Source of the DNA: an uncultured Parachlamydiaceae bacterium
GTDB lineage: Bacteria; Chlamydiota; Chlamydiia; Chlamydiales; Parachlamydiaceae
Length of the DNA stretch: 64,000 bases
Assembly: GCA_963801335.1 (NCBI GenBank)
Contig: CAWDEQ010000001.1
Coordinates: 1,452,237-1,516,236, forward strand
Direction: 5' to 3'
How positions within the stretch are numbered: position 1 is the stretch's first letter; each line of letters opens with the position of its first letter. The notes beneath the pieces are model-generated. The model saw only the letters and a list, made by a program, of their open reading frames with translations, did no database searches and was not told where the DNA came from. Both the position numbers and the translations under genes were made by a program. Shown piece after piece: positions 1,244-11,003 of the stretch.

Positions 1244-4200
1244 ATGTGGGTTCCGCTGCATGTTCATTCACAGTTTTCCATCCTTGATGCATCGGCTCCG
1301 GTGCAGGACATAGCCGAGCGAGCGGCTGCCTTTGGAATGCCGGCAGTGGCATTGACAGACCATGGCAACATGTTTGGGGCGATCGACTTCTATAAGGCTT
1401 GCAAAGAGGCTAAAGTTAAGCCCATCCTGGGCTGCGAGTTTTATGTGGCGCCAGAATCCCGCTTCGACAAAAAAAAGGAATATGGAACGCGAACCAATTT
1501 TCATTTGGGGTTGCTCGCCAAGAATAAGGAAGGCTATCACAATCTCTGCAAGCTCAGTTCCATTGGCTATTTGGAAGGGTTTTACTATCACCCACGCATC
1601 GATAGGGAAGTGCTCGAAAAGCATCGGGAGGGAATCATCTGCCTGTCTGGCTGTTTGAGCAGCCGCATTGCCCACGAAGTGCTGCATGGGACGCGGGAAA
1701 GCCTCATCGCCCAAATCCGTTGGTATCAGAGCCTCTTCGGGGAAGACTACTACCTCGAATTGCAGCGCCATCCGATGAGCGAAGAGGACCTCCAAAGCGA
1801 TGGGATGTACCAAGAATCCTGGCTTCTGCAGCACTATCGCGATTATATTGACAAGCAGAACAAAGTCAATGCCGCCCTTCTTGAAATCGCGAAGGAATTC
1901 CAGATCAAAGTGGTGGCGACAAATGACAGCCACTACATCGACCGCGAAGATTGGCGAGCCCATGAGATCTTGTTGAATATCCAGTCGGGTGAACCGTGTG
2001 AAATCTGGGAGAAGGATTCACAAGGCAACCCCAAATTCCGGGTGCCCAATCCGAAGCGGCGCACCTATGCCTCGCACGAGTGCTATTTCAAGTCCCCAAA
2101 GCAGATGGCGGAGCTCTTTCACGACATCCCGGAGGCGATTTCGAACTCCTTAGAAGTGGCGGAAAAGTGCAAGGTAGAGATCGATTTCAAGACGAGGCAC
2201 TATCCGATCTATACTCCACCCAGCCTTGAAGGCAAGCCGTTCCAGAAAGAAGTACAGGCAAAAGAGGTGGAAAAATTCCTCTGGCAGCTTTGCGAAGAGG
2301 GCATTAAGAAGAGATATACCCCCGAACGGCTAGCCAAAATCAAAGAGATCTTTCCCGATCAGGATCCTGAGACAATCGTCAGGGATCGCCTCAACTACGA
2401 GATGAATGTCATCGTCCCTAAGGAGATGTGCGATTATCTGCTCATCGTGTGGGATTTCATCAATTGGGCCAAGAACAATGGAATCCCCGTCGGTCCTGGA
2501 CGAGGCTCAGGGGCTGGTTCCATCGTCCTGTACCTCATCGGCGTGACCGATATCGAACCCCTGCGGTTCCACCTGTTCTTCGAGCGCTTTATCAATCCCG
2601 AGCGCATTTCCTATCCCGATATCGATGTCGACATTTGCATGGATAGGCGCAACGAGGTGATCCATTATACCTTGAACAAATATGGCAAGGATAATGTCGC
2701 CCAGATTATCACTTTCGGCACCATGAAAGCCAAGTCCGCCATTAAAGATGTGGGGCGCGTCCTTAGCGTCCCCCTCGCCAAGGTGAACGCGATCGCCAAG
2801 CTGGTGCCTGAAGACCTCAATATCACCATCGACAAGGCCTTAGAAAAGGATCAAGACCTTCGCAGCTTATACGAAGAGGATGAAGAGGCCCGCCGCATCA
2901 TCGACTTGGCAAAAAAACTGGAGGGGTCGATCCGTAATACAGGAATTCATGCCGCAGGCATTATCATCGCCGGAGATCCTCTCACTCATTACATTCCGAT
3001 TTGCCATGCGAAGGATTCCGATATGCCTGTCACCCAATATTCGATGAAGCCAGTCGAAATGGTCGGGATGCTTAAAGTCGATTTCCTGGGCCTCAAAACT
3101 CTGACGGCCATTCAGATGTGCGTCGAGGCTATTCCGAATTCAGGCAAAGGGATCGATTGGGTGAATCTGCCCTTGGACGACAAGCCCACGTTCGACCTCC
3201 TCAACCAAGGACATACTCTGGGGATATTCCAGCTGGAATCGGGCGGCATGCAGGACCTGTCGCGCCAGCTGCACCTCGATAAATTTGAAGAGATCATCGC
3301 CGTAGGCGCGCTCTATCGCCCTGGTCCTATGGATATGATCCCCTCCTATATCAATCGCAAGCATGGCCGTGAGCCCATCGAATACGACCATCCCTGGATG
3401 AAAGAGATCCTCTCTGAAACTTATGGCATCATGGTCTACCAGGAGCAGGTCATGCAGATCGCAAGCCAGCTCGCCAAATTCAGCTTAGGGGAGGGCGATG
3501 TTCTGCGGCGCGCGATGGGCAAAAAGGATATGGACCAAATGGCCCAGCAGCGCGAAAAGTTTCGCTTAGGGGCTCTGGAGAATGGAATTCCTGAACAGAT
3601 CTCCATGGCCATATTCGATAAGATGGAAAAATTTGGGGCGTATGGCTTCAACAAATCGCATGCGGCGGCCTATGGCTATCTTTCCTATGTGACGGCCTAT
3701 TTTAAGGCCAACTATCCCAAAGAATGGATGGCTTCCCTGATGACTTGCGATAGCGATGACTTGACCAAAGTGGCCAAGTTCATTGGGGAATGCCAAGCAA
3801 TGAATATTCCCATTTTGCCTCCAGACGTCAACGAAGCCGGCCAAACCTTTGTCGCCATGCCCCATGGAATACGCTTTGCGATGACGGGCATCAAGGGGGT
3901 CGGATCCGGAGTCGTAGAGGCTATCGTCTCTGAGAGGCGCAAGGGAGGGCCATTTAAGTCACTATACGAGTTTTTCAAGCGAATCGATTTGAATAAGGTC
4001 GGAAAAAAGGCTGTCGAGAACCTGGTGGATGCAGGCTGTTTTGACTTTACCGGATGGGCGCGAGATGCCTTGCGCGAGAGCATCGAAGCAATGCATGAGG
4101 TCACGTTAAAAGAGAAACAAGAGGCTGCAGCCGGTTTCCTGTCGCTCTTTTCTTTAATGGGCGATACCTCCGAAGCGCGGTTCAGCAAGCCCTCTGCCGT

Positions 4201-4969
4201 GAAAAATAAGACCTCCCGTTTGGAGTCGCTATTTAGGGAAAGAGAGCTTCTAGGCTTCTTCCTTACGGGCCATCCACTCGATGGCTATCGAGATGCGTTG
4301 AAGAAGCTTTCTTGCGTGCCTCTCAGCTATGTCGAAAAGATGGAGCACGATGCGGTATTTCGCGCTGCAGTATTTGTGGAGTCTGTCGATATCCGCATTG
4401 CCTCCAAGTCGCAGAAGAAATTCGCCATCTTGATGGTTGGAGATGGCTTAGATCGCTTTGAGCTGCCAATCTGGCCTGAACAATACGAAGAAAAGCAACA
4501 TCTCATCAAAGAGAATCAGCTGCTCTACATGGTATTGCAAGTCGAAAAGAAGGAGGAGGTACGCCTTCTCTGCCGCTGGCTCGATGACTTGACCTGCGCC
4601 AACGAGGCCATGGTCGAAAGCTGCGACCGCGCGTTCGATAAGGCAAAAGTGATGGCATCCAAATTCACCAAAACCAAAAAAGAAGCGACCGCTGCACCCA
4701 AACCTAAAAAAGTTGAAATCGCTGAGGATCCTGTAACTATGCTATCCATTAAACTCGATGCTGACAAAATCAAGCTGAGCCATATCATGAAAATCAAAGA
4801 GGCCATCCAGGAAAATAGGGGAAAGACGCCGATGGCGCTCGACTTCTTAGCTTCAGGTAAAACCATCGCCACAGTGCAAATCGACACCCGCTGGGGAATC
4901 ACCCACAACTCCCGCATCGAAAGCCTCCTAAAACAACTCCCCTGCATCATCGAAGTTGATCATCGGTAG
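1244..4969 (+). CDS. dnaE: DNA polymerase III alpha subunit
   Basis: 1241-aa ORF with an RBS-like GGGAG upstream. It has a PHP domain (PLHVHSQFSILDA, ALTDHGNMFGA) and core motifs GPGRGSGAGS, FERFINPERISYPDIDVD, KVDFLGLKTL and YQEQVMQIA. Confidence 0.97.
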   Translation: MWVPLHVHSQFSILDASAPVQDIAERAAAFGMPAVALTDHGNMFGAIDFYKACKEAKVKPILGCEFYVAPESRFDKKKEYGTRTNFHLGLLAKNKEGYHNLCKLSSIGYLEGFYYHPRIDREVLEKHREGIICLSGCLSSRIAHEVLHGTRESLIAQIRWYQSLFGEDYYLELQRHPMSEEDLQSDGMYQESWLLQHYRDYIDKQNKVNAALLEIAKEFQIKVVATNDSHYIDREDWRAHEILLNIQSGEPCEIWEKDSQGNPKFRVPNPKRRTYASHECYFKSPKQMAELFHDIPEAISNSLEVAEKCKVEIDFKTRHYPIYTPPSLEGKPFQKEVQAKEVEKFLWQLCEEGIKKRYTPERLAKIKEIFPDQDPETIVRDRLNYEMNVIVPKEMCDYLLIVWDFINWAKNNGIPVGPGRGSGAGSIVLYLIGVTDIEPLRFHLFFERFINPERISYPDIDVDICMDRRNEVIHYTLNKYGKDNVAQIITFGTMKAKSAIKDVGRVLSVPLAKVNAIAKLVPEDLNITIDKALEKDQDLRSLYEEDEEARRIIDLAKKLEGSIRNTGIHAAGIIIAGDPLTHYIPICHAKDSDMPVTQYSMKPVEMVGMLKVDFLGLKTLTAIQMCVEAIPNSGKGIDWVNLPLDDKPTFDLLNQGHTLGIFQLESGGMQDLSRQLHLDKFEEIIAVGALYRPGPMDMIPSYINRKHGREPIEYDHPWMKEILSETYGIMVYQEQVMQIASQLAKFSLGEGDVLRRAMGKKDMDQMAQQREKFRLGALENGIPEQISMAIFDKMEKFGAYGFNKSHAAAYGYLSYVTAYFKANYPKEWMASLMTCDSDDLTKVAKFIGECQAMNIPILPPDVNEAGQTFVAMPHGIRFAMTGIKGVGSGVVEAIVSERRKGGPFKSLYEFFKRIDLNKVGKKAVENLVDAGCFDFTGWARDALRESIEAMHEVTLKEKQEAAAGFLSLFSLMGDTSEARFSKPSAVKNKTSRLESLFRERELLGFFLTGHPLDGYRDALKKLSCVPLSYVEKMEHDAVFRAAVFVESVDIRIASKSQKKFAILMVGDGLDRFELPIWPEQYEEKQHLIKENQLLYMVLQVEKKEEVRLLCRWLDDLTCANEAMVESCDRAFDKAKVMASKFTKTKKEATAAPKPKKVEIAEDPVTMLSIKLDADKIKLSHIMKIKEAIQENRGKTPMALDFLASGKTIATVQIDTRWGITHNSRIESLLKQLPCIIEVDHR

Positions 4970-5332
4970 CGGGTTTCCTTGAAAATCAAGTTCTTCCTAG
5001 ATAAAATTTTGAAAAAATGGCCCAAAATTGTATAATTAAGATAAAATTTTCAAAGAAAAGGGTTGGGAATGGCCTCCAAAGAAGAAAAAGAAATAGAAGC
5101 ACATTTAAAGTTTGCTTTAGAGGAAAATCGGCCAAAATAATCCCGAAAATCGACGAACCCTGACTTATGCAACTGTCTCTAAAGGATCTAAAGAAGAAAA
5201 AGAAAGAATCTATGTGCCAAAAGATATAGCCAACTTTCTGAGAGAGCCTGGAGCTCTTGTATATCTCCGTGGCCTAATACAAGTCTGTCATCATGCGCAC
5301 CTACAAAGAAACCGACTTCCAAAACCCTCAAA

Positions 5333-5378
5333 TCTCAATTGCCGGTAGAATGGTAGCGCCGGACGCCTAGCTTGCAAA
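5333..5378. repeat. 46-bp direct repeat, copy A (duplicate of the 3' end of the ABC-2 permease gene at 7359-7404)
   Basis: Hand alignment of tctcaattgccggtagaatggtagcgccggacgcctagcttgca against 7359-7404 gives 41/46 identities in the same orientation. On the minus strand, copy A still reads KLGVRRYHSTGN-stop, like the real gene end. Confidence 0.75.
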
Positions 5379-5699
5379 TTATGCAGTGTAAGTCAATCTT
5401 GAAAGCCTTTGTTGCATGCCAATGATCCTTTTCCTAATTTCTCCTTTCGTATTCTGTAAAGGCTTCTTTTAAGTGTTTATTCGGCTTGGGAGGATTTTGT
5501 AAAGCATCAAGGAATATAAGTTCCTTGTATTTTTCCCTTTATCTTTATTTTATCAACAGCGATTCGTCGAGCTTAAATTAGAGTGCAATTTTATTCCGTA
5601 TTTTGTATTCTATTTAATTAACATTGAAGGATGTCTTAGACTCCACACCTGCGCTGTGCATGAGATTGTTCCCTTCAAGAAATACTTATAAAGGCCATT

Positions 5700-6872
5700 A
5701 TGAATATAATTAATTCTAATCCGTCGTATCAGCCAGATCTCGTCATTGTTGGTGCGGGGCCCTGGGGCTCCTTATATGCAAAGAGAGTGAAACAAATCTT
5801 CGATAAGAAGTTTGGAGACCAAAAACCATTAAGTGTTATCCTTCTGGAAAAGCGGCAAAGTCCAACGCCTCGCAGCAATACACTCACCTTGGATGAAGCG
5901 ACGCTGAAGAACCATCCGGATATTCGTCCCATCGTGAATGACAAAAGAGAAGCGCGCATTGCCGATCTCGAACAGCATCTGAGACAATGTGCCCAAGCAG
6001 CCGGTGTCGAGATTGCTTATCAAGGTGTGACGGATCCCGAAAAATTATATGAACAATTTCCTTCAGTTCATCTCTATTGCGGTGCTGATGGCGCCAATAG
6101 CATAGTGCGCCAAAAAGTCTTTGGGGATGAGGTTGAAAAAACTATTTTGAAACGCGTCGTGCAGATCCGCTACAAAGCCACAAATCATCGCCCTCCCTTA
6201 AAGAAACTCAAATTGGAAATTCAGACGTTTTCTACCAAATACAAAACGATGAAAATGGTCGATCGCGTCATTGAAGAACATGTAGGAAAAGACTTTGTGA
6301 CAACGCGTTTCTTTGTCTCCGAAGAAGAATTCAAAGCGATGGAAGCGGCAAAATCGGCAACTCCTTCCAAACTCAACGAAGGCTGTCAGAAGTGGGTCAA
6401 TTCCAAAATCCACAAAGATATTCAAGCTTATCTCAATATCAGGGCGCGTAAAGGGGAAGTCAGGCCAGCCGAGTCGATTGTGGAAGTGACAGCCTATCCA
6501 TTAGCCATCACGCGATCCAAACGTTTCGTCAAGTTGACGCCTGGAAAGCCTGCTTGGATTTTAGGAGGCGATGCGGCAATGAATTTTGCTTTTTGGAAAT
6601 CGTTCAATGTCGCTTGCAAAATCTTGCCCGAGCTTGCTGCCCTATCCGCAGAACATATTGCTCTTCATCGGAAGGATAAAATGAGCGCCAGCCCTCTGCA
6701 CAAATACCAACAGATTGGAGACAGAGAATTTTGGTGGTCATCGCTCGTGACACGAATCATCAACCTGTTTTTGTCGATTTGGGAAAAGTTTGTCTCGATT
6801 AGCGGCCGAGTTCCCTGGCAAATCAATCGGTGGAGCGACCAACAAATTCGAGAATTTGCAGCATCCCAATGA
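5700..6872 (+). CDS. FAD-dependent monooxygenase-like flavoprotein (group A fold)
   Basis: 390 aa. It has an N-terminal Rossmann GxGxxG (LVIVGAGPWGSLYA), a GADGANSIVRQ motif (the GD/DG FAD-NAD(P)H motif of PHBH-type monooxygenases) and a degenerate GGDAAM third motif. Confidence 0.6.
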   Translation: MNIINSNPSYQPDLVIVGAGPWGSLYAKRVKQIFDKKFGDQKPLSVILLEKRQSPTPRSNTLTLDEATLKNHPDIRPIVNDKREARIADLEQHLRQCAQAAGVEIAYQGVTDPEKLYEQFPSVHLYCGADGANSIVRQKVFGDEVEKTILKRVVQIRYKATNHRPPLKKLKLEIQTFSTKYKTMKMVDRVIEEHVGKDFVTTRFFVSEEEFKAMEAAKSATPSKLNEGCQKWVNSKIHKDIQAYLNIRARKGEVRPAESIVEVTAYPLAITRSKRFVKLTPGKPAWILGGDAAMNFAFWKSFNVACKILPELAALSAEHIALHRKDKMSASPLHKYQQIGDREFWWSSLVTRIINLFLSIWEKFVSISGRVPWQINRWSDQQIREFAASQ

Positions 6873-6878
6873 TCCTTT

Positions 6879-6916
6879 AAAGGGACAGTAATTTCGGATA
6901 GTCCCTTTGTCATTTT
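6879..6916 (+). terminator. Stem-loop after the flavoprotein gene
   Basis: aaagggac (6879-6886) pairs with gtcccttt (6901-6908) across a 14-nt loop, followed by a T-rich tract gtcattttcg. Confidence 0.4.
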
Positions 6917-7013
6917 CGTCGTTTTCTCTCTTGCGTCGTTGTCCTTTGGTCGTTTGTCGTTTGGTCCTTTTGTCCCTTTGCGGCTAAACAGCCTGACCCC
7001 GATCACCGATCAT

Positions 7014-7337
7014 TCAGTTAGGCGTAACTTTTATAATATAGCCCTTGTTTTCCAGCCATTGTATGACGGCCTTTCGACCTGAGATTGTAGCATGTACGAT
7101 TAAATGATATTCCGTAGGGCAATTATTCTCTTGTAACCAATCTAAAAGGGCTAAGTGCCCGCCTCTGCTTGAATAAAGCTTGCGTCGATCTTCCGGGCTT
7201 CTCCAAATGAAGTCTAGGGCATACAATCGTCTATTGACCATTCCAAGCGGAGTTAGAGAAATCTCTCGATCATTCAGGTGAGGGATTAGGACATCCCGAA
7301 TCACGTCATTTGGAAGTGACATTAAATTTGTTATCAT
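7014..7337 (-). CDS. F-box plus ankyrin-like repeat protein (eukaryote-like effector candidate)
   Basis: 107 aa. The N-terminus LPNDVIRDVLIPHLNDREISLTPLGMVNRRLYAL fits the F-box consensus (LPdEll..Il..L....L..l..VcK.w..l). The C-terminus GGHLALLDWLQENNCPTEYHLIVHATISGRKAVIQWLENKGY resembles ankyrin repeats of the GHLevlkWL.enGCp type. Confidence 0.6.
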   Translation of the reverse strand: MITNLMSLPNDVIRDVLIPHLNDREISLTPLGMVNRRLYALDFIWRSPEDRRKLYSSRGGHLALLDWLQENNCPTEYHLIVHATISGRKAVIQWLENKGYIIKVTPN

Positions 7338-7358
7338 GATCTTAGTCCTTATTTAAAG

Positions 7359-7404
7359 TCTCAATTTCCGGTAGAATGATAGCGGCGGACACCTAGCTTC
7401 CACG
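7359..7404. repeat. 46-bp direct repeat, copy B (authentic 3' end of the ABC-2 permease gene)
   Basis: Pairs with 5333-5378 (41/46 identities). It covers the last 14 codons and the stop of the 7361..8146 gene. Confidence 0.75.
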
Positions 7405-8146
7405 TCTGAAAGGAAAGCAGGAGAAAGAGCAATCCAGCCAAAGGAAAAAGCGCGCCTGCCCATAGGGGATAATCTTCATGGCGAAGCAGGGTGGCTATTG
7501 GGTAATAAGAAACGCAAGCCAAGGGAATAATTGCCGTAAAGACATACCTGAGAAGGGGCTTGTACACTGTGATGACATACTGGCCTGCCTCCACGCCTCC
7601 ATAGGTAGTAATGTTCATCAATTCCAGCGTTTCCACGGTCCAAAAGCAGAGGCTTCCCTGGATAACGAATAGCCCAAAGAATAACAACGTCGTTCCTAAA
7701 AAAGCCAAGAAGATCAATGGTGTCTCCCATGAGAATAGGGAAAACCCTAAAGCATAGCAGCTCCATAGCAATACGCAAAAACCTTGGGCAAACCTTCCCA
7801 TGCGCATGAGTTGAAAATCGCGGCAGGCGATTTGCATCAGGGTGCTGACCGGACGGAGCAGAATGAGGTCAAAGTCTCCCTTTTTTATCATCTGGCTAAA
7901 AGTGTCAAAACCCCTTCCTGCTGCTTCTGCGGTAGCAAATCCCATATGGATGATGCCGTAAATCAGAGCTAGCTCCTCCAAGATCCATCCATTTAATGTT
8001 TTGAATCGTTCATAGAGCACCCACATCCCGATGATATCGACAAAGGTAGAAATGAAATGGCTCAACATCAGCATCAAGAATGAGGCTTTGTGCTGCATCT
8101 GAGAGCGAATCGAGATTCTGATCATCTGCCAATAGAGGCGAAGCAT
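7361..8146 (-). CDS. ABC-2 family transporter permease
   Basis: 261 aa with about 6 TM segments. It is separated from the upstream permease by only 3 bp. The pairing of two similar permeases with one ATPase is typical of the ABC-2 (COG3694/COG4587-like) arrangement. Confidence 0.7.
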   Translation of the reverse strand: MLRLYWQMIRISIRSQMQHKASFLMLMLSHFISTFVDIIGMWVLYERFKTLNGWILEELALIYGIIHMGFATAEAAGRGFDTFSQMIKKGDFDLILLRPVSTLMQIACRDFQLMRMGRFAQGFCVLLWSCYALGFSLFSWETPLIFLAFLGTTLLFFGLFVIQGSLCFWTVETLELMNITTYGGVEAGQYVITVYKPLLRYVFTAIIPLACVSYYPIATLLRHEDYPLWAGALFPLAGLLFLLLSFQTWKLGVRRYHSTGN

Positions 8147-8149
8147 TTC

Positions 8150-8938
8150 TTAACCTCCCTGGATGACAACGCGTTTTAAGGCCAGCTTCATGAGAAGCCT
8201 CCCGATAGCAACCAAGGCAATAATCCAAGCTATTTGAAAACCAAAAGCAGGGAAAGCCTCTTGGACAGGAATGACTCCGGTATAGAGCCTGCAGGGAATA
8301 TCAATGATGCCTCTAAAGGGCTGCAAATTAAGCGCGGGCTGAAGCCACTCGGGGAATAGGGGCAGGGGAACCACAAGACCCGAAAGAAGCATGACGGTAT
8401 GGGGCATCAGCCTCATGAGTCCCTCTCCAGAGATGGTCCAGAACAGGGTGATCATGACAAAAGTCGTAATTGCTGCTGAGAGTAGGGCCCCGAAGCCTAT
8501 AGCGGCTAAAAAGGCAATAAAGGCCCCAGAGGAGACGGGCGCCTGCAGTTCAAAGAAGAGCCCTGCCAGGACGAAAATGGGCGTGCAGCGCAAGAGTGCC
8601 GGGACGACGCGCATAGCTAGAGAACGGAAAAACCAGAGCCCATAGAGGTCTAAAGGCCTGATGAGTTCATATAAGACATTTCCGCTTTTCACTTGGGCTT
8701 CGAGTTCTTTATCAAAAGACCAGGGCAGAAGCTGGAGCAGTGCCTGGCCAAGCCAGATGAATGTGATGGTCTGAGAAAGGGCAATGGGATGGTTCTGCGT
8801 TTCGGCAAAAAAGGCGGTCAAAATCATCATTTTCAACAATCCCCAAAATAGTTGGGTTGTCAACCCCGCCAGAGCGGCAGACCGGTACTGGCAGATCGTA
8901 AAAAATCGGCTGAGGAAGATGGCTTTATAAGATCTCAT
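8150..8938 (-). CDS. ABC-2 family transporter permease
   Basis: 262 aa, multi-TM. Its start overlaps the ATPase gene stop by 4 nt (translational coupling). Confidence 0.7.
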   Translation of the reverse strand: MRSYKAIFLSRFFTICQYRSAALAGLTTQLFWGLLKMMILTAFFAETQNHPIALSQTITFIWLGQALLQLLPWSFDKELEAQVKSGNVLYELIRPLDLYGLWFFRSLAMRVVPALLRCTPIFVLAGLFFELQAPVSSGAFIAFLAAIGFGALLSAAITTFVMITLFWTISGEGLMRLMPHTVMLLSGLVVPLPLFPEWLQPALNLQPFRGIIDIPCRLYTGVIPVQEAFPAFGFQIAWIIALVAIGRLLMKLALKRVVIQGG

Positions 8939-9909
8939 AGGTTGACTTCCCGATAGAGCTGAGCAATGATCTCTTCAATCGGTGGGTTTTCGATGTACAG
9001 GTCGCGTATGGGATAGTTGGAAGTAATGCGGCTGATTAATGCCGTAGTGGATGTCTTTTGGGGGTTGTATTTCAGCCATGCTCGATGGCCCTCCTGTTTC
9101 AATAATACTGCCTCGGGATCGCTCACAAAGGCTTTATCATCGATTAAATCGACGATGAGGCGCCTTTCCGGAGCCATCTTCTGCCTAAACGTTTCCAAGA
9201 GTCCATCATAGTAGAGTTTTCCTTCGTTGAGTATCAGAACGCGCCGGCAAAGGGATTCGATGTCATCCATGTCATGAGTCGTTAGGATGATCGTCGTCTT
9301 GTGCTGCTGATTGAGATTTCGGATGAAATTTCTCACGGCGATCTTGCTGACGGCATCGAGTCCAATCGTGGGCTCATCCAGAAATAAGATCTTAGGCGAA
9401 TGTAGAAGAGAGGCGGCGATATCGCAGCGCATCCGTTGCCCTAAACTCAAATGCCTCACAGGAATGCTATAGAGCTTCGCTAGATCCAATGCCTCTGTCA
9501 GCTCTTCTAAAGCCCTTTGATAGGAGCCTTGTGGGATGCGATAGATCTCCTTCAAAAATTGGAAAGAATCGATGACGGGAAGATCCCAAAGGAGTTGGGT
9601 GCGCTGCCCAAAAACGACTCCGATTTGACTGACCGTTTCAATCCGGTTTTCCCAGGGGATTTTCCCTAGGACTTTGACCTCCCCCTCATTGGGGTGTAAA
9701 ATTCCGGCCAATATTTTGACGGTGGTGCTTTTTCCTGCGCCATTGGGGCCGATATAGCCGACCAGTTCCCCTTCGCAAATATCGAATGATAGATGGTCCA
9801 AAGCGGATTTGATTAGCGTCTTTCGGTTAAATAGGAATGAGAAAATACCCTTCTTCTTTTCCGAAATGCGAAAATTTTTTGTTAGATTTTTTACAGAAAT
9901 GATGTTCAT
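8935..9909 (-). CDS. ABC transporter ATP-binding protein
   Basis: Walker A GPNGAGKST, Q-loop, signature LSLGQRMR, Walker B ILFLDEPTIGLD and H-loop LTTHDMDD. It has a C-terminal extension typical of ABC-2 ATPases. Confidence 0.9.
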   Translation of the reverse strand: MNIISVKNLTKNFRISEKKKGIFSFLFNRKTLIKSALDHLSFDICEGELVGYIGPNGAGKSTTVKILAGILHPNEGEVKVLGKIPWENRIETVSQIGVVFGQRTQLLWDLPVIDSFQFLKEIYRIPQGSYQRALEELTEALDLAKLYSIPVRHLSLGQRMRCDIAASLLHSPKILFLDEPTIGLDAVSKIAVRNFIRNLNQQHKTTIILTTHDMDDIESLCRRVLILNEGKLYYDGLLETFRQKMAPERRLIVDLIDDKAFVSDPEAVLLKQEGHRAWLKYNPQKTSTTALISRITSNYPIRDLYIENPPIEEIIAQLYREVNL

Positions 9910-10028
9910 AGACTTAACACAAATAAAGTCATCATATCAAAAAACCGAAACAGATGTCAATGAAAGATTTATATTGTAGTTTTTGCTATTCTCGCCTACA
10001 ATCAACCTCGAAATAACGGAGGATTGTA

Positions 10029-11003
10029 ATGCAAATGAAGAAGTTTGGGTTACTGACATTACTGGCTCTTTCATTTTGTGCTTTGGCTCATGCCGAGTGG
10101 ACGATTAGTAATGGAAAACTCATCGATAAAAAGAAAGCGGCTACATTAACTGTCCAAGATCACTTTGGGACTGGCATGGGCGCCATGGAACATGGCGATT
10201 GGCAGGAGGCAGCCACTCAATTCACCATCATTTCCAATTCTTTTCCCAATACCTCTTATGGGCAGGATGCTTCCTATTATCTGGGCGTCTCCTACTTCCA
10301 TTTAAAGGAATTAGATTTTGCCAATGATGCCTTTACACAATATCTAAAAAGCAAGAATAATCCCCAGTTTTTCCAAGAGGCGATTGAATACAAATTTCAG
10401 ATTGCTGAAGCCTTCAAAGGCGGATCCAAAAAACGCGTGATGGGATATAAGCAACTCCCCAAATGGTCTAACGCAGACAATTTATGTGTGCAGATTTATG
10501 ACGAAGTCATTGCGGCAATGCCCTGCCATGACATTGCAGCTAGAGCCCTTTATTCAAAGGCTGGTTTTCTATGGAAAAATGGACAATATCGGGAAAGCAT
10601 CGATGCCTATCAAACTCTCATCAAGCGGTTTTCAAAACATGAACTTGCCCCGGAATCCTTTCTTTGCATCAATAAAGTCTATCTAGACCAATGCCAAAAT
10701 GAATATCAAAATCCCGATATCTTGGCCTTTTCTCAAATTAATTTGCGCAGATTCAAACAGGAATTCCCCCGAGAAGAACGCATCCACATTGCAGAAGAAG
10801 ATTGCATGCGCATCAAAGAGGTTTACGCCAAAGGCCTCTACGAAACGGGACAGTTTTATGAGAGAACGCACCATCCCCATGCCTCGATCATCTATTACAC
10901 CAATGCGATCATGCAGTTCCCTGACACGCAGGTGGCTAACCTCTGTCGAGAAAGACTGGTTTCCCTCAAGGCAGATATCCTTCCAACAAAAAACGATTCA
11001 TGA
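10029..11003 (+). CDS. Secreted TPR-repeat envelope protein, BamD/YfiO-like
   Basis: Signal peptide MQMKKFGLLTLLALSFCALAHA. It has TPR-like helices (ASYYLGVSYFHLKELDFANDAFTQYLKS, ALYSKAGFLWKNGQYRESIDAYQTLIKRF). It overlaps the start of the downstream lipoprotein gene by 4 nt. Confidence 0.5.
   Translation: MQMKKFGLLTLLALSFCALAHAEWTISNGKLIDKKKAATLTVQDHFGTGMGAMEHGDWQEAATQFTIISNSFPNTSYGQDASYYLGVSYFHLKELDFANDAFTQYLKSKNNPQFFQEAIEYKFQIAEAFKGGSKKRVMGYKQLPKWSNADNLCVQIYDEVIAAMPCHDIAARALYSKAGFLWKNGQYRESIDAYQTLIKRFSKHELAPESFLCINKVYLDQCQNEYQNPDILAFSQINLRRFKQEFPREERIHIAEEDCMRIKEVYAKGLYETGQFYERTHHPHASIIYYTNAIMQFPDTQVANLCRERLVSLKADILPTKNDS

Follow-up and report, generated by a model that had tools for sequence, protein, structure and literature searches.

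A 2-kb segment nested between duplicated gene 3′ ends in a soil chlamydia: a candidate insertion scar

How did a 2-kb segment of a chlamydial chromosome come to lie between two copies of the end of one transporter gene? The question is raised by the window analysed here, a stretch of 64,000 nucleotides (nt) from the genome of an uncultured soil chlamydia of the Parachlamydiaceae (3.25 Mb, four contigs, GC content 45.7%), in which the last codons of an ABC-2 permease gene recur without a gene attached to them. A sequence-only reading had proposed that a foreign segment integrated into the 3′ end of the permease gene and either carried or duplicated a replacement end. Following up this proposal, we give about an even chance to the locus being an inactive scar, and no working mobile element, left by one or more insertions of DNA that brought replacement tails to gene 3′ ends.

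A repeat search and pairwise alignment covering 4–11 kb of the window brought out one outstanding direct repeat. Its two copies, and the operon to which one of them belongs, are as follows.

5330–5376, minus strand: copy A (P′), an orphan copy of the end of the permease gene, comprising 13 codons, the stop codon and 5 nt; the gene body is absent.
7356–7402, minus strand: copy B (P), the functional permease 3′ end and 5 nt beyond the stop codon.
7361–9909, minus strand: the ABC-2 operon, with permease 1 (7361–8146), permease 2 (8150–8938) and ATPase (8935–9909).

In their best register, the copies are identical at 41 of 47 positions. The sequence-only reading had rightly placed a direct repeat here and seen that it encloses a separate 2-kb segment where the permease gene ends, although its register (5333–5378 and 7359–7404), credited with 41 identities in 46, in fact yields 39. 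It had also recognized copy B as the genuine end of the permease gene, which comprises the last 13 codons plus stop rather than 14. Pairwise alignment showed that the similarity breaks off sharply at both ends of the repeat. The longest identical run is 11 nt, making further recombination between the copies unlikely. Chance is excluded as an explanation, because a 23-nt core of the repeat was matched in none of 100 shuffles of the window. Across the whole 3.25-Mb genome, the sequence occurs in these two copies only, which rules out a genome-wide dispersed repeat, the finding that would have undone the original proposal; R1 and R2, two dispersed repeats described below, are separate sequences.

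On the minus strand, copy A reads C-KLGVRRYHSTGN-stop, with no gene in front of it, as had been described. Its frame contains no open reading frame (ORF) of at least 20 amino acids, and no permease-like remnant was found beside it in 4970–5700 using tblastn (E up to 1000) or tblastx against the genome. Both copies share the minus-strand codons K-L-G-V-R-R-Y-H-S-T-G-N-stop. Within these 12 codons the copies differ at four sites, all of them third-position and synonymous; one codon further inward, copy A has TGC where copy B has TGG, which also differ at the third position, and past this codon the similarity ends; one further difference lies 3 nt past the stop codon. The in-frame differences therefore all fall at third codon positions (5/5, 4 of them synonymous), a pattern with a probability of 0.0024 under random placement and an estimated probability of ~0.025 if the orphan decays freely and the functional copy takes silent changes only. 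Both permease tails probably evolved as working gene ends before meeting in one genome, judging by these substitutions. The restriction to third positions argues against plain target-site duplication and, between the two options left by the sequence-only reading, favours a replacement end that was carried and disfavours one that was duplicated. A functional tail would have been retained because the permease C-terminal motif, W-K-[LIV]-G-V-x-x-Y-x-S-x-G-x-stop, is conserved in nine orthologues.

The arrangement is real DNA and no assembly artefact, since both junctions are covered by metagenome contigs. We mapped 11 soil metagenome runs to the locus, at a depth of 2–4x. A short-read contig from soil metagenome data spans 5252–5486 without mismatch (junction A), and a contig from a different sample, representing a variant strain that differs by ~3%, spans 7283–7500 (junction B); strains ~3–4% apart co-occur in the same soils. 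This 218-nt variant contig (run X5) carries three differences within 9 nt of the permease tail (7391–7399), including a K-to-E codon change, and three further differences only in its remainder. The cluster at 7391–7399 may reflect a short tract of recombination at the junction.

A second direct repeat lies inside the first, and duplicates the tail of another gene. Its copies and the other contents of the segment are as follows.

5377–5407, no strand: a 31-nt unique spacer between the orphan tails, without similarity to 6825–6854 or to the rest of the genome.
5408–5431, plus strand: M′, an orphan copy of the end of the monooxygenase gene, comprising its last five codons, the stop codon and 6 nt.
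5432–5699, no strand: AT-rich non-coding DNA upstream of the monooxygenase gene, with a GC content of ~0.35, like other local intergenic DNA.
5700–6872, plus strand: a gene for a group-A flavin-monooxygenase-like protein of 390 amino acids, from an uncurated family; its 3′ end (6855–6878) is repeat copy M.
6900–6978, no strand: R2, a GT-rich dispersed intergenic repeat of ~78 nt between the convergent monooxygenase and F-box genes.
7014–7337, minus strand: a gene for an F-box and ~1.5 ankyrin repeats, 107 amino acids, the shortest member of its family.

These contents confirm the earlier description of AT-rich non-coding DNA, an ORF resembling flavin adenine dinucleotide (FAD) monooxygenases on the plus strand and an F-box/ankyrin ORF on the minus strand. 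Read along the plus strand, P′ and M′ are 31 nt apart; another 268 nt precede the monooxygenase ORF, which ends in M, and 141 nt, R2 among them, separate this ORF from the F-box gene in reverse, itself 23 nt from P, which is fused to the permease. M′ and M are identical at 21 of 24 positions, and their three differences are non-synonymous (V/A and C/S). A 13-nt exact core occurs at these two sites only, genome-wide, and no other 24-mer in the genome lies within four mismatches of the functional copy M. In a targeted test, we compared the non-coding left part of the insert with 60 nt of sequence around each of six neighbouring stop codons, and the M′/M match beat all 1000 shuffles. Around homologues of the monooxygenase gene in four relatives, we found no gene-tail repeats.

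A single tandem duplication cannot produce the nested order P′, M′, M, P, and no single-step model predicts the inner repeat cleanly; the M′/M pair shows a history more complex than one insertion. Both repeats are short, of the size of attachment (att) sites, which insertion would predict and random end-points of a deletion would not, and each spans a stop codon. The genome contains 24 local two-copy direct repeats and, among the 15 examined for ORF context, P′/P alone spans the stop codon of a protein gene.

We infer an insertion rather than a deletion, with copy A as the displaced resident tail. Incoming DNA, carrying at least the F-box/ankyrin gene, would have become linked to the resident ABC-2 permease gene at a point 39 nt short of the stop codon; the monooxygenase gene is now also present. 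Copy B would be the slightly diverged last 13 codons of the incoming DNA and, because that DNA supplied its own tail, the permease would have stayed intact, leaving the resident tail stranded 2,026 bp away. The nested 24-nt pair could record a second event of like kind, or could have been present already in the incoming DNA. Any recombinase enzyme would have acted in trans or been lost; a site-specific recombinase and recombination with related-strain DNA, the latter combined with one illegitimate joint, are about equally likely.

Several observations weigh against an insertion of this kind. In the linear map, the orphan M′ lies upstream of its gene, which a simple replacement-end event would not predict. 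Far from being alien, the F-box gene comes from a family resident in this genome, and GC content, GC content at third codon positions (GC3) and codon usage of both cargo genes fall within the normal range of the genome. A Pfam search of the insert and of the DNA within 38 kb of it yielded no mobility gene, whether integrase, transposase or other, the nearest of nine genomic PF00589 matches being 38 kb away and broken, and the insert does not end in inverted repeats. The 11 soil runs, at their depth of 2–4x, contained no empty site, deletion joint or circle junction, and no second occurrence of the insert was found in genome, metagenome, phage or plasmid collections. Finally, at position 7391, the variant-strain contig has G, the state of copy A; the site is thus polymorphic in the population, and at least part of the divergence between P′ and P arose in place. 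The description of the segment as ‘foreign’ is not supported by these results: its composition is ordinary (foreign composition was rejected on GC, GC3 and codon bias alike), its F-box gene belongs to a resident set of at least 57 paralogues, and integrase, transposase and terminal inverted repeats are absent.

Specific vehicles were considered and set aside. A transposon or insertion sequence with target-site duplication was rejected, as the repeat is 47 nt long at 87% identity and there are neither inverted repeats nor a transposase domain. An integron cassette was rejected as well, there being no tyrosine recombinase within 38 kb and no palindromic structure in the repeats, though attC models were not searched. 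Inspection by eye, without a formal dif model, showed no dif-like ATAAT-N6-ATTAT motif in either repeat. Resident integrases acting in trans were also discounted, the att cores at tRNA-Leu and tRNA-Pro being unlike the 47-mer. A search for a donor, using a codon-degenerate pattern of the permease tail, gave no match in collections of genome and metagenome contigs, and the phage and plasmid collections contained nothing similar.

Among the alternatives, the one that survives best is that the orphan tails are relics of deletion: a second, diverged ABC-2 operon and a second monooxygenase gene, present as paralogues or through an earlier acquisition, would have been removed in one or two deletions, leaving their distal 47 nt and 24 nt, now separated by 31 nt. 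Such an event would explain the adjacency of the orphan tails as the flanks of one deletion, and the third-position-only differences by both copies having once been functional, and it needs no recombinase. Tandem arrays of paralogues are common in this genome and the F-box ORF, compared with other family members of 220–600 amino acids, may itself be truncated. Against this, both end-points of the deletion must fall within 50 nt of a gene 3′ end, and the order P′, M′, M, P is unlike the product of a tandem duplication. No coding trace of a permease, ATPase or monooxygenase is found beside the orphan tails, and none of the nine orthologous ABC-2 loci examined carries a spare or duplicated permease tail. 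We consider deletion unlikely, if worth taking seriously.

Quite unlikely, in our estimate, is duplication in place, whereby the 47-nt and 24-nt pieces are filler from break repair or template switching at the left edge of the block, or the remains of a trimmed 2-kb tandem duplication. It accounts for two orphan pieces side by side at one junction, each with its source within 2 kb and in the same orientation, for the similar divergence of the two pairs (87% and 88% identity) and for the difference at 7391, which arose within the population in copy B. However, a non-functional copy should change at all codon positions, whereas the differences between the permease tails are confined to third positions (p ~0.0024 to 0.025) and the 12 shared codons of copy A are free of frameshifts and missense changes. 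It would also be rare for two random snippets both to span a stop codon (~0.1%, as a rough estimate). Very improbable is a third alternative, that copy A is kept as a terminator, RNA element or recombination site in use: it is intact and overlaps the end of a small plus-strand ORF (5214–5348), but that ORF has no homologue that our search could find, copy A has no Rfam match and no terminator-like site, copy B does not preserve its weak CCGG hairpin, and the reads, at 2–4x depth, contain no joints or excision products.

Taken together, att-sized repeats that end just past stop codons and the silent differences between the permease tails are better explained by an insertion that brought a replacement tail than by random deletion or by copying at the site.

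We next placed the segment in its chromosomal setting, which adds the following features.

1244–4969, plus strand: dnaE, a 1241-amino-acid ORF and the conserved left flank of a variable slot; orthologues found with tblastn adjoin the bamD-like gene in relatives.
4970–5329, no strand: non-coding spacer between dnaE and copy A, holding one copy of R1.
10029–11003, plus strand: a gene for a BamD-like tetratricopeptide repeat (TPR) lipoprotein (PF13525 YfiO, 38 bits), the right flank of the slot.

Using the BamD-like TPR protein as query, we searched 40 relatives and used the 29 best-matching loci from other genomes. In 15 of the 29, dnaE, on the upstream side, and the bamD-like gene abut (gap ≤ ~0.4 kb); six others have unrelated inserts of 0.6–4 kb in the gap, and four have lost the linkage. 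The sequence-only reading had named dnaE and the TPR/LptE-like genes as near neighbours in Chlamydia; in most relatives dnaE and the TPR (BamD-like)/LptE-like genes do directly adjoin, so that the 5.0–9.9-kb block is extra here. Given this adjacency, which is the ancestral state of the flanks, the whole stretch 4970–10028 occupies a variable slot, and the dnaE–bamD gap is a hot-spot in the family. The inserts seen elsewhere in the gap include a eukaryote-like Ser/Thr kinase with a PP2C phosphatase (G006, L075:7913-11980), a TspO-like protein with two large hypothetical proteins (G022, L074:5321-8297) and a methyltransferase-like ORF (G040, L068:202-1576).

The operon itself matches PF06182 twice and PF00005 once. 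Permease 1 scores 143.8 bits against PF06182, for which the gathering cut-off is 22, and the ATPase scores 89 bits against PF00005; a Pfam match above the gathering score and an ABC ATPase in the same operon identify permease 1 as an ABC-2 transporter permease. Orthologues of the three-gene operon were found in 5 of the 40 relatives, with 53–63% permease identity, always elsewhere in the genome and with different neighbours. The closest permease homologue in public data is ~65–67% identical.

Of the two cargo genes, the one at 5700–6872 encodes a protein without a Pfam match above threshold. Its family is diffuse (312 representatives, best identity 35%), with GxGxxG, DG and GD motifs that are invariant in a 40-sequence alignment; 24 of the 40 homologues match PF01494 at E up to 0.001. 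The AlphaFold model has a predicted local distance difference test (pLDDT) score of 90, and its top Foldseek matches are the group A flavin monooxygenases Bmp2, Rox, MtmOIV and KMO (E ~1e-13). With these fingerprints and a modelled PHBH-type fold, the product is a predicted group A flavin-dependent monooxygenase. The monooxygenase domain of MICAL, a eukaryotic, actin-oxidising enzyme, is also among the Foldseek matches. One relative, G005, carries a 417-amino-acid FAD-Rossmann ORF convergent on the orthologous permease (L037:7632-8885) and very distantly related to the monooxygenase family of the window (hhalign probability 87%, E 4e-6). A conserved linkage of flavoenzyme and ABC-2 operon was considered; as the pairing is found in G005 but is missing at eight other loci, we treated it as coincidence. 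The AT-rich DNA upstream of the monooxygenase gene (5432–5699) has no ORF and no Rfam match; within it, at 5508–5537, a hairpin is followed by a T-run (CAAGGAATATAAGTTCCTTG TATTTTTCCC), with near-copies at C1:523216 and C3:385056.

The 107-amino-acid F-box ORF has no Pfam match of its own, yet in phmmer it aligns over residues 4–101 to at least 57 resident F-box/ankyrin ORFs; of two paralogues tested, both exceed the Pfam cut-offs for Ank and one exceeds that for the F-box (PF00646). Across the genome, 85 ORFs carry the family's repeat, many of them in tandem arrays such as those at C3:307-333 kb and C3:539-560 kb. The F-box gene begins 23 nt downstream of the permease stop codon and has an AAGGA Shine–Dalgarno sequence. 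From this spacing and motif, it is probably on the operon transcript, co-transcribed as the last gene of the ABC-2 operon. Transcription of the F-box gene at the end of the transporter operon is likely the only functional consequence that the arrangement has today.

Other repeats and elements occur around the segment and elsewhere in the genome. R1 is a ~58-nt dispersed repeat with ~25 genomic copies, 10 of them as adjacent inverted pairs. The solo copy at 5123–5181 is flanked by a 19-nt direct repeat (5075–5093 and 5187–5205) resembling a target duplication. R2 has 115–135 copies genome-wide, ~30 as inverted pairs, and is also present in contigs of other organisms from the same soil runs. We considered R2 as a cassette-associated site and rejected it, its enrichment downstream of F-box/ankyrin-family ORFs being weak (6/85 versus 45/1875). 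Integrative elements with att duplications are present in the same genome at tRNA-Leu and tRNA-Pro. Outside the window, a 71-nt direct repeat (C1:927990-928059 and 939104-939174) has copies that are 92% identical and separated by 11.1 kb; a tRNA-Pro gene overlaps one of them, and the interval contains a tyrosine-integrase match (C1:930128-930667). The tRNA-Pro segment flanked by this repeat resembles a further integrated element.

Little is understood of how obligate intracellular chlamydiae acquire and rearrange accessory genes, of which their huge F-box/ankyrin effector families are a prime example. If it is an insertion scar, the locus offers a datable footprint, in which a gene of an effector family and an orphan flavoenzyme gene came to lie behind a transporter operon, together with a substitute tail for the gene, in a slot that varies across the family. 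Should further genomes of the genus show the empty site, or cassettes at gene ends, this would indicate a route of gene capture without an element-encoded recombinase. A broader proposal, which we regard as improbable, is that environmental chlamydiae undergo a cassette-type insertion without a recombinase in cis, whereby accessory or effector genes, for instance those of the F-box/ankyrin family of 57 or more, are placed at the 3′ ends of resident genes and substitute tails are supplied, allowing the target genes to survive. Were it true, the nested 47-nt and 24-nt repeats would be two successive footprints, and the process one route by which effector families spread around the chromosome. 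As it stands, the locus is a single inactive scar on our reading and requires no new biology.

Four known systems come closest to this locus. The expansion of F-box and ubiquitination-related effector families in Parachlamydiaceae is the subject of Domman et al. 2014 (PMC4209131). The cargo gene studied here likewise belongs to a lineage-specific family of dozens, in a genome of the amoeba-associated chlamydial type; at this locus, one F-box family member has come to lie behind an operon, and a spare gene tail marks its footprint. In genomic islands and prophage-like elements integrated at tRNA genes, of which the tRNA-Leu and tRNA-Pro elements described above are examples, direct repeats that duplicate the end of the target gene flank the insert, as they do here. 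In contrast to our segment, the tRNA-Leu and tRNA-Pro elements target tRNA genes, span 11–18 kb and carry tyrosine integrases. Homology-facilitated illegitimate recombination, described in naturally transformable bacteria, adds foreign genes by means of one homologous anchor and one illegitimate joint; no recombinase is required, and a remnant of the resident sequence that was replaced can be left behind. To our knowledge, it has not been demonstrated in environmental chlamydiae and, alone, it leaves the nested monooxygenase-tail repeat unexplained.

The closest counterpart is the insertion of e14 or phage 21 into icd of Escherichia coli, which produces the icdC pseudogene and in which the tail copies differ mainly by synonymous changes (PMC13626634; Hill et al. 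1989, cited there). In both cases an insert lies between direct copies of the 3′ end of a protein gene, the near copy completing the ORF and the far copy being an orphan, and here too the copies differ mainly by silent changes. However, e14 is 15 kb long, has its own integrase and excises on SOS induction, whereas the present insert is 2 kb long, has no recombinase, yielded no excision product in reads at 2–4x depth and has a second gene-tail repeat nested inside it. The icd duplication made by e14 covers the last 50-odd codons, compared with 47 nt here. By analogy, therefore, the locus would work like the e14/icd class; we withhold membership because a feature that helps to define the class, an integrase encoded by the element, was looked for and is absent. 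The kind of scar is already known; what this locus adds is a nested example, without a recombinase, in the Chlamydiae.

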